Shown here: positions 10,473 to 14,146 of the stretch, piece after piece | Position numbering within the stretch: the first letter of the stretch is position 1 | Layout of the letters: each line of letters starts with the position of its first letter | From: an uncultured Actinomycetes bacterium | GTDB taxonomy: Bacteria > Actinomycetota > UBA4738 > HRBIN12 | DNA length: 64,000 nucleotides | Reading direction: 5' to 3' | Assembly: GCA_963704885.1 (NCBI GenBank) | Contig: CAVPIB010000001.1 | Coordinates: 480,001 to 544,000, forward strand | The notes under the pieces: model-generated | What the model was told of the DNA's origin: nothing | Database searches by the model: none | The model's input: only the letters and a program-made list of their open reading frames with translations | Made by a program: the position numbers and the translations under genes

Positions 10473-10567
10473 TGGCGGAGGCGGACGGGAATCGAACCCG
10501 CCTGGGAGCTTGCGCCCCCACGTCGGTGTTGAAGACCGCGGGGCCCACCAGGAACCCTGACGCCTCC
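10473..10567 (-). tRNA. selC: tRNA-Sec (anticodon UCA)
   Basis: 95 nt, GGAGGCGT...CCGCCTCC-G-CCA; 6-bp D stem; anticodon loop CTTCAAC; long variable arm TGGGGGC-GCAA-GCTCCCA; T arm GCGGG-TTCGATT-CCCGT. Confidence 0.95.
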
Positions 10568-11815: not shown

Positions 11816-11895
11816 CGACGTTTCTGTGAACATCAAGGGAACCGGCGGTTCAGCCGAGGGTCATGTCGGGACACCACCGTAGGATGGATGCAACC

Positions 11896-12708
11896 ATGGA
11901 AGCCGCGTTCTTCGATCTGGACAAGACGATCATCTCTCGATCGTCCTCGCTCGCGCTCTCTCGTCCCCTGTATCGGGCCGGCATGGTCTCGCGTGGACAG
12001 CTCCTGCGCGGAGCCTACGCGCAGCTGGTCTACCTACTGGTGGGAGCCGACGAGGACAAGATGGAGCGCCTGAAGGAGGGCATGCTCTCCCTCACGAAGG
12101 GGTGGGATCGCTCGCAGGTCGAGCGCCTCGTGCAGGACGTGCTTCTAGACGTGATCGATCCGTACGTCTATCAGGAGGCTCTGGATCTGATCGACCTGCA
12201 CCGAAGCGAGGGTCGCCGGATCTACATCGTCTCGTCGTCTCCGGAGGAGATCGTCCGGCCTCTGGCCCGTCACTTCGGTGTCAGCGGAGTGATCGCCACA
12301 CGCGCCGAGGTCGGCGACGACGGTCGATACACCGGCGGACTGGAGTTCTACGCCTACGGTGCTCAGAAGGCCGAAGCGATCCAGGGGCTCGCCGTCAGGG
12401 CGGGTATCGATCTCTCGGGTTCGTTCGCTTACAGCGACAGCATCACCGACCTCCCCATGCTCGAGGCCGTCGGCAACCCTGTGGCGGTGAACGCCGACAA
12501 GGAGCTCCGCAAGATCGCGGAGGAGCGCGACTGGCAGATCCGCGACTTCCGTCGCCCCGTTCGGCTCCGCTCCCGTATCGCCTCGACCGCGTCGCAGCCC
12601 AAGACTCAGGTCGCGGCCGGCGTGCTGGCCGCCGGCGCGGTGGCCGCGGTCCTGGTGTGGGTGGCGCTCCGGTCGCGCGGCGGAACACGAGGCCGCGGAC
12701 GAGCCTGA
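11896..12708 (+). CDS. HAD-IB family hydrolase (Rv3661-like)
   Basis: AAFFDLDKTII, IVSSS, AYSDSITDLPML and VAVNAD motifs; C-terminal TM helix. Confidence 0.92.
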   Translation: MEAAFFDLDKTIISRSSSLALSRPLYRAGMVSRGQLLRGAYAQLVYLLVGADEDKMERLKEGMLSLTKGWDRSQVERLVQDVLLDVIDPYVYQEALDLIDLHRSEGRRIYIVSSSPEEIVRPLARHFGVSGVIATRAEVGDDGRYTGGLEFYAYGAQKAEAIQGLAVRAGIDLSGSFAYSDSITDLPMLEAVGNPVAVNADKELRKIAEERDWQIRDFRRPVRLRSRIASTASQPKTQVAAGVLAAGAVAAVLVWVALRSRGGTRGRGRA

Positions 12709-12730
12709 GCCCGCACCAGGCTTGCCCGCG

Positions 12731-12759
12731 TTGCGTCGATCCCGGGTCGGGTGTACGGT
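12731..12759 (+). promoter_or_regulatory. Sigma-A-type promoter of the Ms1-like RNA
   Basis: TTGCGT (12731-12736)-N17-TACGGT (12754-12759). Confidence 0.6.
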
Positions 12760-12764
12760 CGAGT

Positions 12765-12902
12765 TGTCTCTTCGGAGGCATCGGGGGGAGCAGAACCCAC
12801 GCGCGAGTCAAGCCGCGGGAGGCATGCTCAGGACCCGGGGGCGCGTAGCCGCCCGGCTCCCGAGCAAGTGCAGACGATGCGCTTGATACCTGCTCCCCTC
12901 GA
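12765..12902 (+). ncRNA. Ms1-like (6S-shaped) RNA
   Basis: 5' TGTCTC-TTCG-GAGGCA hairpin; 13-bp closing stem 12781-12793/12890-12902; ACCCACGCG, GCCGCGG and GCGCTTGATACC motifs resembling Ms1; located directly downstream of an Rv3661-like HAD gene. Confidence 0.75.
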
Positions 12903-12919
12903 CTATGGCCTGGCGCGGA

Positions 12920-14146
12920 TCACGCTTGGGCGGCGACGGGGCGTAGGTACTCGAAGTGCATCCCGTCGGGCACGATCCAGTCGCCACCCCATGCGAACCC
13001 CCACCGATCCATGACCGCGACGAGTCGTGGATCCTGGGCCGGCGGCGTCCCGAACCGATTCGTGTCGGCGTTCACGTCGAAGGCGATCCCCCAGGCGTGA
13101 TGCGAGATCGACGCCGACGGAGATAGCAGAACGAATCGGGACGAGAAGCAGCCGTCGTAGACGTGGATCGCGGACGCCAAGCCCTCGGCGACGACCTCTT
13201 CCATGGCGCCTCGCAGCTGCGGGATGAGCTTGCGGTTGCAGGACACTCGCCCGATCGCGGGTAGCACCGCAGTCACGATGTGCGCCTGCACCCAGGCCGG
13301 GTCTATCTCGATGTATCCGGCGTCTCCCGGCTGTGGACGCCCCGCCCACTCGCTGAACCGACGCTTGATGAGCGCGGGCGGGAGCACGGCGTCGCCTTGT
13401 CGTAGGTACTTCGTCTGGCCCGGGGCGCGAACCTGTACCACCGGGTACTGCAGATCGGACGGGAGCAGCGCCCGGAACCGGTTCTCGAGTTGGGTGTCGG
13501 ACGGCTGTAGGCCTGTCTCTGGCTGGAAGAGCACGTACCGGTTCTGGTGAACACCGATCGCGGCGCCGGTGGCCCGTGTCACCACGACCTCCGCCGCCCC
13601 CACCAGCTCATCGGGGAGGATGCCGATGACCGTGACGCTCGCCCCTCCCAAGAACGTCATAACGCCACCTGGTCCCAGGTGCCTGAGCTTGGATGACGTC
13701 AGTCCCAAGATCGCCTGGCCGTCCTGGAGGTTGGCAACGATAGGCCTGGTCTCGGGAGGAAGGAATCGCGCGTAGGCGGCCTGATCGATAGCCGCCGCGT
13801 CGATGGGGATCATGTAGGGGGCGGGGGGTTCGTCGACCAGGTTGCCGCCCTTGTCGAGCGAGCTGGTCATCCAGACGTTGTCCTGGGCGACCACGGCCAC
13901 CCCGGCGACGGTTGGGAGGGCGGCGACCTTCACCCCGAAGCCCACCGGGAGACCGCCGGGTACCCAGGCGAGGTACGCATCGACTCGCGGCCCCTCGGGG
14001 GGAGGCGCCGAAGGAGTTCCGGTGGATGGGGTGGGCGTGCTTGCTTCACCGTCAGCCTCCGCTCGCTGGATGAGCGTCACCAGCACCGAACCCGCAGCTG
14101 CGACGGCCACGAACGCTGAGATCCCGGCGATGAGCGCTCGCCGCAC
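12920..14146 (-). CDS. M15 family metallopeptidase (D,D-carboxypeptidase / L,D-endopeptidase-like), exported
   Basis: N-terminal signal/TM segment; SHHAWGIAFDVN and WGGDW..DGMHFE motifs. Confidence 0.88.
   Translation of the reverse strand: MRRALIAGISAFVAVAAAGSVLVTLIQRAEADGEASTPTPSTGTPSAPPPEGPRVDAYLAWVPGGLPVGFGVKVAALPTVAGVAVVAQDNVWMTSSLDKGGNLVDEPPAPYMIPIDAAAIDQAAYARFLPPETRPIVANLQDGQAILGLTSSKLRHLGPGGVMTFLGGASVTVIGILPDELVGAAEVVVTRATGAAIGVHQNRYVLFQPETGLQPSDTQLENRFRALLPSDLQYPVVQVRAPGQTKYLRQGDAVLPPALIKRRFSEWAGRPQPGDAGYIEIDPAWVQAHIVTAVLPAIGRVSCNRKLIPQLRGAMEEVVAEGLASAIHVYDGCFSSRFVLLSPSASISHHAWGIAFDVNADTNRFGTPPAQDPRLVAVMDRWGFAWGGDWIVPDGMHFEYLRPVAAQA

Follow-up and report, generated by a model that had tools for sequence, protein, structure and literature searches.

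A compact, probably Ms1-like RNA gene downstream of a HAD-IB hydrolase gene in an uncultured class of Actinomycetota

Overview

The window, a 64,000-nucleotide stretch of DNA from an uncultured actinomycete, contains at positions 12731-12902 a free-standing non-coding RNA gene of about 137-140 nt, which has its own promoter and is present in a single copy. The RNA is probably a miniaturised homolog of Ms1, and thus kin to M. smegmatis Ms1, M. tuberculosis MTS2823 and S. coelicolor scr3559. The assignment is argued from the synteny with a HAD-IB hydrolase gene, the layout of the promoter, three short elements that are kept in order and paired, and a pair of motifs that is unique in the genome. 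The RNA is best viewed as a much smaller variant of the known Ms1 family, in lineages for which none had been reported, rather than as a new kind of system.

Only three classes of abundant RNA that bind bacterial RNA polymerase are known, Ms1 among them, and the accepted lower size limit for such RNAs is about 150-160 nt. One of the shortest 6S RNAs is given as about 160 nt and Ms1 as about 300 nt (PMC11077062). Ms1 has been predicted in 824 species of 14 orders, all of them named taxa, and the candidates examined from Table S2 of that report span about 210-314 nt (PMC9130861). The same 2022 report describes RNAs shorter than 150 nt as too short for 6S or Ms1 and excludes them, and it judges that an Ms1 would not fit into HAD-linked spacers of 20-100 nt; short intergenic regions behind the HAD gene have been interpreted as loss of Ms1 (PMC9130861). 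A literature search turned up no compact Ms1, no metagenomic Ms1 homolog and no structure of Ms1 with polymerase.

The locus and its neighbors

The RNA region sits between a HAD hydrolase gene on the forward strand (11863-12708) and a convergent M15-type peptidase gene on the reverse strand (12920-14146). The HAD gene, of the type that flanks Ms1, encodes a protein of 281 aa with a hydrophobic C-terminal segment. It matches Pfam HAD (PF12710, E 4.7e-35) and NCBIfam TIGR01490 (176.4 bits, cut-off 98.3), the latter placing it in the HAD-IB subfamily, and its product is 47-51% identical to those of the HAD genes beside canonical Ms1 in families f41 and f27. An upstream HAD-IB hydrolase gene is described as the hallmark neighbor of Ms1, and the Ms1-linked MSMEG_6173 likewise is a HAD-IB protein with a hydrophobic end segment (PMC9130861). 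The sequence-only reading of this DNA had placed the RNA at the HAD-gene locus of Ms1, and this was correct: the RNA lies directly downstream, on the same strand, of a HAD-IB gene (TIGR01490) of the Rv3661, MSMEG_6173 and SCO3558 type.

The flanking distances are short. The -35 element starts 22 nt past the HAD stop codon, and 17 nt separate the 3' end of the RNA from the stop codon of the peptidase gene. The latter gene (Pfam Peptidase_M15_4, E 1.5e-13) is a neighbor outside the RNA, and it is found convergent and downstream at 50 of the 80 HAD loci described below (L001-L080).

Several other features of the surroundings were recorded. The last part of the HAD gene, stop codon included, is spanned by an inverted repeat of 11 bp, CCUGGUGUGGG...CCCGCACCAGG (12651-12720, forward strand), which ends 10 nt ahead of the -35 element of the RNA gene; it gave a weak riboswitch look-alike match (E 1.5, far under the cut-off) and may be a terminator-like hairpin that lacks a U-run. 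A tRNA-Sec gene on the reverse strand (10477-10567; Rfam 70.9 bits against a cut-off of 47) makes it appear that the host lineage uses selenocysteine. The dnaA gene is on the same contig (G000:C1:197603-198082, forward strand), 295 kb from the RNA gene, a distance of about 10% of the 3.0 Mb draft genome, which is assembled in 20 contigs; the RNA gene is transcribed away from the dnaA side. Published Ms1 genes lie near the replication origin and are transcribed towards it.

Promoter and transcript ends

The sequence-only reading had proposed a promoter with the elements TTGCGT and TACGGT at a spacing of 17 nt, and both are located as it described. The -35-like element occupies 12731-12736 and the -10 hexamer 12754-12759, 17 nt further on, both on the forward strand. 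Conservation was judged on 88 distinct aligned rows, from which identical copies, two loci cut by contig ends (L053 and L068) and two from unpublished genomes (L098 and L107) had been removed. The G and C of the -35 element are conserved in at least 90% of these rows, and within the -10 hexamer A12755 and the final T12759 are invariant (88/88). A TTGC-like element occurs at the equivalent place upstream of canonical Ms1, and canonical Ms1 promoters carry GTACAAA at an equal distance from the start of the RNA, so that the GTAC core is common to both. The predicted transcription start is a purine at 12766 on the forward strand, 7 nt past the -10 hexamer; Ms1 starts defined by Rfam or by RACE are preceded by a matching spacing.

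A scanner whose consensus is that of E. coli found neither promoter nor terminator between 12500 and 13200. Because of this negative result, the promoter call is based on conservation and on the likeness to canonical Ms1 promoters; the conservation is what would be expected if a primary-sigma promoter served the RNA gene itself. Past the closing helix, the same interval (12500-13200) showed no terminator made of a hairpin and a U-run. Since no terminator follows, trimming presumably removes what lies past the closing helix, and the 3' arm of that helix would then be followed almost at once by the probable mature 3' end.

Secondary structure and covariation

The region 12755-12905 folds with a predicted energy of -79.9 kcal/mol (RNAfold, z = -3.58), and none of 200 shuffled sequences folds as well. 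The forward strand is clearly the relevant one, scoring 143 bits against 30 for the reverse strand. Coding potential was rejected, as 314 of the 347 indel runs are not multiples of three.

All elements of the fold lie on the forward strand. At the 5' side, RNAfold predicts a hairpin with a C(UUCG)G loop (12765-12780), and relatives have hairpins of differing sequence at this place. The low count of pairs for this hairpin in a 66-row alignment (54.8% paired) reflects rows that are out of register; the hairpin is absent in family f2 and in f18. The adjoining closing helix consists of 13 bp between a 5' arm (12781-12793) and a 3' arm (12890-12902). Within it lies junction motif 1, ACCCACGCG (12795-12803), which is nearly invariant in the 66 rows, followed by a small junction hairpin, GCC-GCGGGA-GGC (12811-12824; family consensus UGCC...GGCA), whose three G-C/C-G pairs are kept invariant in 65-66 of 66 rows. 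Next comes the apical stem-loop (12826-12865), which is supported by covariation, and then junction motif 2, GCGCTTGATACC (12879-12890), which complements motif 1 save for one C-U mismatch.

The two long helices of the sequence-only reading are borne out by covariation. In the 66-row alignment, the closing helix is 97.3% paired with both-side changes at 12 of 13 pairs, and the apical stem is 90.6% paired with both-side changes at 14 of 15. None of 500 shuffles reached the observed value of any of the five pairing measures, and slid controls were only 38-51% paired. The 66-row alignment, which includes distant copies, was realigned to the covariance model R1 and is therefore biased in favor of the structure, but earlier MAFFT-based counts agree with it. 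In a 55-row alignment thinned to less than 93% identity, neither any of 500 shuffles nor any slid control did as well as the three-helix structure. Mutual information, computed with no recourse to folding energies, also ranked Watson-Crick pairs of the apical stem and closing helix at the top, led by the column pairs 12833-12858 and 12837-12854 of the apical stem.

The junction behaves differently from the helices. Five of the six pairs between motif 1 and motif 2 are kept in 60-66 of the 66 rows in the window's class; at the outermost position, 63 of the 66 have C opposite A and no pair. Over this class, 86% of cells retain the junction pairing, as against 14-45% when the strands are slid. 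No compensatory change was seen at these pairs, and shuffle controls reached the observed values in 433-500 of 500 runs. The pairs never vary, and covariation therefore neither supports nor contradicts the junction. The same holds for the choice between two interior folds, between which covariation cannot discriminate: form A, the minimum-energy fold of the single sequence with a local-hairpin interior, was set aside for form B, with an Rfam-like junction, because many relatives and the f18 RNAs fold in the latter way by themselves. In form B, the junction consists of ACCCACGCG paired with CGCUUGAUA across a C-U mismatch, the GCC-GCGGGA-GGC hairpin and single-stranded linkers. A possible extension of the apical stem by GCAUG/CGUGC pairing was dropped on inspection of the variants in the alignment.

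The 5' hairpin with its cUUCGg loop, the 13-bp closing helix and the apical stem thus all lie where they had been drawn from the sequence. What had been called a central bubble is more aptly seen as a three-way junction, which motif 1 and motif 2 close by pairing with each other.

Distribution of the RNA

A search with the HAD protein retrieved 80 public loci, all from metagenome-assembled Actinomycetota. BLAST found the intergenic element, directly downstream of the HAD gene, at 78 of these 80 loci. At L018 the RNA (L018:3429-3575, reverse strand) lies about 1.1 kb from the HAD gene and on the opposite strand; L049, one of the two BLAST misses, has little downstream flank. The median length of the unit, counted from its predicted start through the 3' arm of the closing helix, is 141 nt, with extremes of 117 and 153 nt.

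The class sample around the window holds families f1-f8 only, which makes the window's lineage a class in itself; all of its known members are metagenome-assembled genomes. Searched with R1, 119 of the 151 genomes of this class, and 84 of the 101 of high quality, have a single copy of the RNA. By family, the RNA was found in 101 of 115 genomes of f1, 7 of 13 of f8, 5 of 6 of f6, 3 of 3 of f2, 1 of 1 of f5, 1 of 2 of f3 and 0 of 10 of f7. Within f1, R1 found no copy in the three genomes of genus g139, which are the smallest (1.3-1.6 Mb). The genome tallies include genomes flagged as unpublished (G008, G029, G037, G041, G057, G085, G118, G196, G220, G249, G255, G274, G278 and G289).

The RNA also occurs outside this class. 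In a phylum sample of 151 genomes, R1 matched 17, namely the window's own genome (G000), six classmates, 8 of 10 genomes of f18, a separate class of 21 genomes, and 2 of 10 of f16, another small lineage. All eight f18 copies follow the HAD ortholog and share its strand, seven of them within 300 nt; in the f18 genome G064 (G064:C31:38056-38170) it lies 1.9 kb downstream, again on the same strand. The stretch of the f18 sequences that R1 aligns with the 5' hairpin is actually the promoter, and the f18 RNAs begin at the closing helix and measure only about 103 nt, with an apical stem reduced to 6-7 bp. Their folds have z scores between -2.3 and -5.8, and for three of the four RNAs tested no shuffle out of 200 did as well. 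Similarly, the f2 members L102, L104 and L106 have their -10 element just before the closing helix, giving RNAs of about 110 nt. The two f16 copies (L119:1501-1623 and L127:1501-1640, both on the reverse strand) do not adjoin a HAD gene, the former being flanked by a DUF72 gene and a patatin-like phospholipase gene.

No copy was found in the HAD-downstream regions of 13 other families (L138-L150). An unfiltered search of the 800 nt past the HAD gene was also empty in G030 and G036 (f7), G146 and G173 (f18) and G076 (f16), all of which retain the HAD ortholog. The f18 genomes that R1 does not match belong to genus g114. These results suggest that the RNA has been lost, relocated or strongly diverged in f7, g139, g114 and G076.

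Relationship to Ms1

Profile searches did not connect the RNA with Ms1. The Rfam model of Ms1 (RF02566; 304 positions, gathering score 162 bits) gave no match in the window at its gathering score and matched none of the 151 genomes of the window's class; a whole-genome search with it gave nothing at the RNA locus. The Ms1 and 6S affinities that the sequence-only reading had suggested thus found no echo in Rfam, neither model matching between 12600 and 13000 at E up to 10. All of Rfam, applied to the whole window at gathering scores, recovered the tRNA-Sec only, and when 12600-13000 was scanned permissively, nothing came up but chance matches, microRNA-like or riboswitch-like, under the cut-offs. 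In the reverse direction, R1 and R2 gave nothing significant against the canonical Ms1 loci, the best matches being terminator hairpins. An nhmmer search of the same loci with the family profile returned E values of 0.47 or worse, and BLAST with the 141-nt RNA against five whole canonical genomes did not recover the Ms1 loci at E up to 10.

The failure of RF02566 is less telling than it might appear. DNA downstream of HAD orthologs was taken from 20 genomes of other families, and among these RF02566 matched four f41 loci (one of them at 147 bits, the other three exceeding the gathering score) but none of the three f27 loci. The f27 loci come from Streptomyces-sized genomes, carry Streptomyces-type Ms1 and closely match the RACE-verified S. 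coelicolor Ms1 sequence given in the supplement of PMC9130861. Because RF02566 misses Streptomyces-type Ms1, its failure cannot exclude membership in the family. Rfam is reported to detect Ms1 only near the mycobacteria (PMC9130861), and RF02566 is too narrow to define the Ms1 family.

The positive evidence comes from short elements and their arrangement. The exact sequence ACCCACGCG, followed by CGCTTGGTAACC with at most one mismatch, occurs on the HAD strand in all seven canonical-type loci, and both motifs are present in the RACE-verified S. coelicolor sequence (PMC9130861, supplement). The Ms1 motifs to which ACCCACGCG at 12795 and GCGCTTGATACC at 12879 had been likened are therefore real. 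Measured against the junction pattern of ACCCACGCG and CGCUUGGUA(A/G)C, paired and accompanied by a small hairpin, the window RNA has motif 1 exactly and motif 2 with one substitution (G to A). The motifs are spaced by 84 nt in the window, 85-87 nt in f27 and 149-151 nt in f41. Along the 5' strand of the junction, the window RNA is identical to the f41 loci at 26-27 of 35-36 aligned columns and to the f27 loci at 24 of 40.

The Rfam structure of Ms1 pairs the two motifs with each other (CGC-U-uGG with CCa-C-GCG, including a C/U mismatch), places a ugCC-GCgaaAuA-GGca hairpin just after motif 1, then an apical arm, and encloses the junction in a 14-bp helix with a 2x2 internal loop, which a 5' hairpin domain abuts. 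The window RNA has these parts in the same order, and many relatives as well as the f18 RNAs adopt the fold spontaneously. Both RNA genes have their own promoter downstream of a HAD-IB gene on the same strand, with equal spacing to the start; both have a 5' hairpin abutting a long-range helix of about 13-14 bp; in both, ACCCACGCG pairs with CGCUUGgUA across a C-U mismatch; and in both, a UGCC...GGCA hairpin after motif 1 and an apical stem complete a three-way junction.

The differences mostly concern size. The window RNA is about 140 nt long and the Ms1 of RF02566 about 304 nt, with a 5' domain of 16 nt as compared to 66 and an apical arm of about 40 nt as compared to about 100. Motif 2 carries GAUA in place of the GGUA of Ms1, so that the outermost junction pair is lost, and the 3' terminator hairpin and U-run of Ms1 are missing. 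The host also belongs to a separate, uncultured class. S. coelicolor Ms1/scr3559, at about 230 nt, is closer in its layout: it has both motifs at nearly equal spacing, and it too is missed by RF02566. Unlike the window RNA, however, it has about 85 additional 5' nt and a 3' terminator hairpin, and its small junction hairpin differs in sequence. Of the features of the overall Ms1 fold, the junction, closing helix, apical stem and 5' hairpin are present and the 3' hairpin is absent, in an RNA of about 140 nt rather than 230-300.

It is unlikely, but must be considered, that the RNA is a lineage-specific structured sRNA that is unrelated to Ms1 and has some other partner or function, the motifs and the HAD neighbor being due to coincidence or convergence. 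This would explain why no alignment-based method significantly matches canonical Ms1, and why f16 copies occur without an adjoining HAD gene. The frequency of the motif pair bears on this question. The pattern ACCCACGCG-N60-160-CGCNTGRTA occurs once in the window's genome, exactly at the RNA locus, and the reversed control pattern does not occur there at all. Over 151 GC-rich genomes, the pattern matches 26 times and the reversed control still 15 times, a background that would favor coincidence; 12 of the 26 matches, however, are directly downstream of a HAD ortholog, and one more is an f16 copy with no HAD gene beside it. By our own estimate, which assumes about 0.1 chance matches per genome, the pattern should fall by chance within a particular 211-nt spacer, correctly oriented, with a frequency of the order of 1 in 100,000; the R (G or A) of the pattern was chosen with the window in view and is thus partly fitted, at a cost of about a factor of two.

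Coincidence would also have to account for three elements that share their order, pairing scheme and spacing with Streptomyces-type Ms1, next to a flanking gene, strand and promoter layout that are common to both. In addition, R2 aligns the central domain of Streptomyces-type Ms1 collinearly over all 139 positions, in the correct place and on the correct strand, at scores that are below significance (L133, 15.7 bits, E 0.08; L131, 12.1 bits, E 0.4); it gave no core alignment for L132 and the four f41 loci. The proposal of an Ms1 homolog of about half the usual length is thus supported by the motifs, the Rfam pairing layout and the HAD synteny, without a significant profile or BLAST match.

Proposed function

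By analogy with Ms1, the window RNA probably binds RNA polymerase. Transcription from about 12766, driven by the housekeeping-type promoter with its -35 element at 12731 and -10 element at 12754, would yield an RNA that folds into the 5' hairpin, the 13-bp closing helix, the nearly invariant three-way junction and the variable apical stem. Together with the helices on either side, the junction might then imitate an opened nucleic-acid scaffold, by the same analogy, and the RNA would act as a stable decoy in the main channel of the RNA polymerase core, keeping a reserve of polymerase when growth slows. Ms1 itself associates with core polymerase lacking the primary sigma factor and builds up as an abundant transcript in stationary phase. 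In M. smegmatis Ms1, deletion of the internal bubble is reported to cut core-polymerase binding strongly (PMC4191392). Across the three lineages that carry the window RNA, the junction is the only nearly invariant part, with all of the helices drifting by compensatory change. A nearly invariant junction amid drifting helices is what one would expect if the helices served as a scaffold for a surface that contacts protein.

A variant of this model, which we regard as quite improbable, is that the RNA is a relative of Ms1 but acts like 6S RNA, binding the primary-sigma holoenzyme, or both forms of the enzyme as does Corynebacterium CoRP, rather than the core alone. The overall logic of the fold does resemble that of 6S (RF00013), which is thought to imitate opened promoter DNA, in that two helices flank a conserved and partly open center; 6S itself binds the sigma-70-type holoenzyme and serves as template for product RNA. 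CoRP, moreover, shows that the choice of partner varies among actinobacterial RNAs (PMC11077062), and with no RF00013 gene detected in this 97%-complete genome the role of 6S would be unfilled. The RNA has no sequence or profile match to 6S, however, and no 6S family matches the RNA region at E up to 10. Its motifs are those of Ms1, which binds the core in both species tested (PMC4191392, PMC9130861), S. coelicolor Ms1/scr3559 included (PMC9130861). The suggestion that the RNA could inform the relationship between 6S and Ms1 has not been borne out: no link to 6S was found, and nothing in the data bears on an evolutionary connection between the two families.

Finally, the RNA region could in principle be a cis-acting element, which would either belong to the HAD mRNA, forming its 3' UTR or a terminator structure, or regulate the convergent peptidase gene in antisense, as the 22-nt distance from the HAD stop codon to the -35 element with no terminator between, the 17-nt distance to the peptidase stop codon and the presence of that gene at 50 of 80 loci would allow, but this is very improbable given the invariant A and T of the -10 hexamer, the retention of the RNA at 78 of 80 loci as compared to only 50 for the peptidase gene, the copies away from HAD (L018, G064 and f16), and the fact that the most conserved part is an internal junction and not a terminator.

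Implications

If the RNA is an Ms1 homolog, a broader though tentative proposal can be put forward. Among natural RNAs that sequester RNA polymerase, the 140-nt RNA and the f18 RNA of about 103 nt may be the smallest. The functional core of Ms1 might then be a three-way junction of about 100 nt, in which motif 1 and motif 2 form a helix containing the C-U mismatch and are joined by the GCC-GCGGGA-GGC hairpin and a pair of short helices, and the long arms of mycobacterial and Streptomyces Ms1 would have been added later. Ms1-type regulation would, on the same proposal, be older than the split of several Actinomycetota classes.

The natural series of about 103, 140, 230 and 300 nt, with one invariant junction throughout, points to the part of the RNA that would contact polymerase, and it supplies a construct small enough to suit binding assays and structure determination. 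The finding would extend the reach of the Ms1 family to deep, uncultured classes of Actinomycetota, and, with RF02566 being too narrow, genomes that have been scored as lacking Ms1 may merit a second look.
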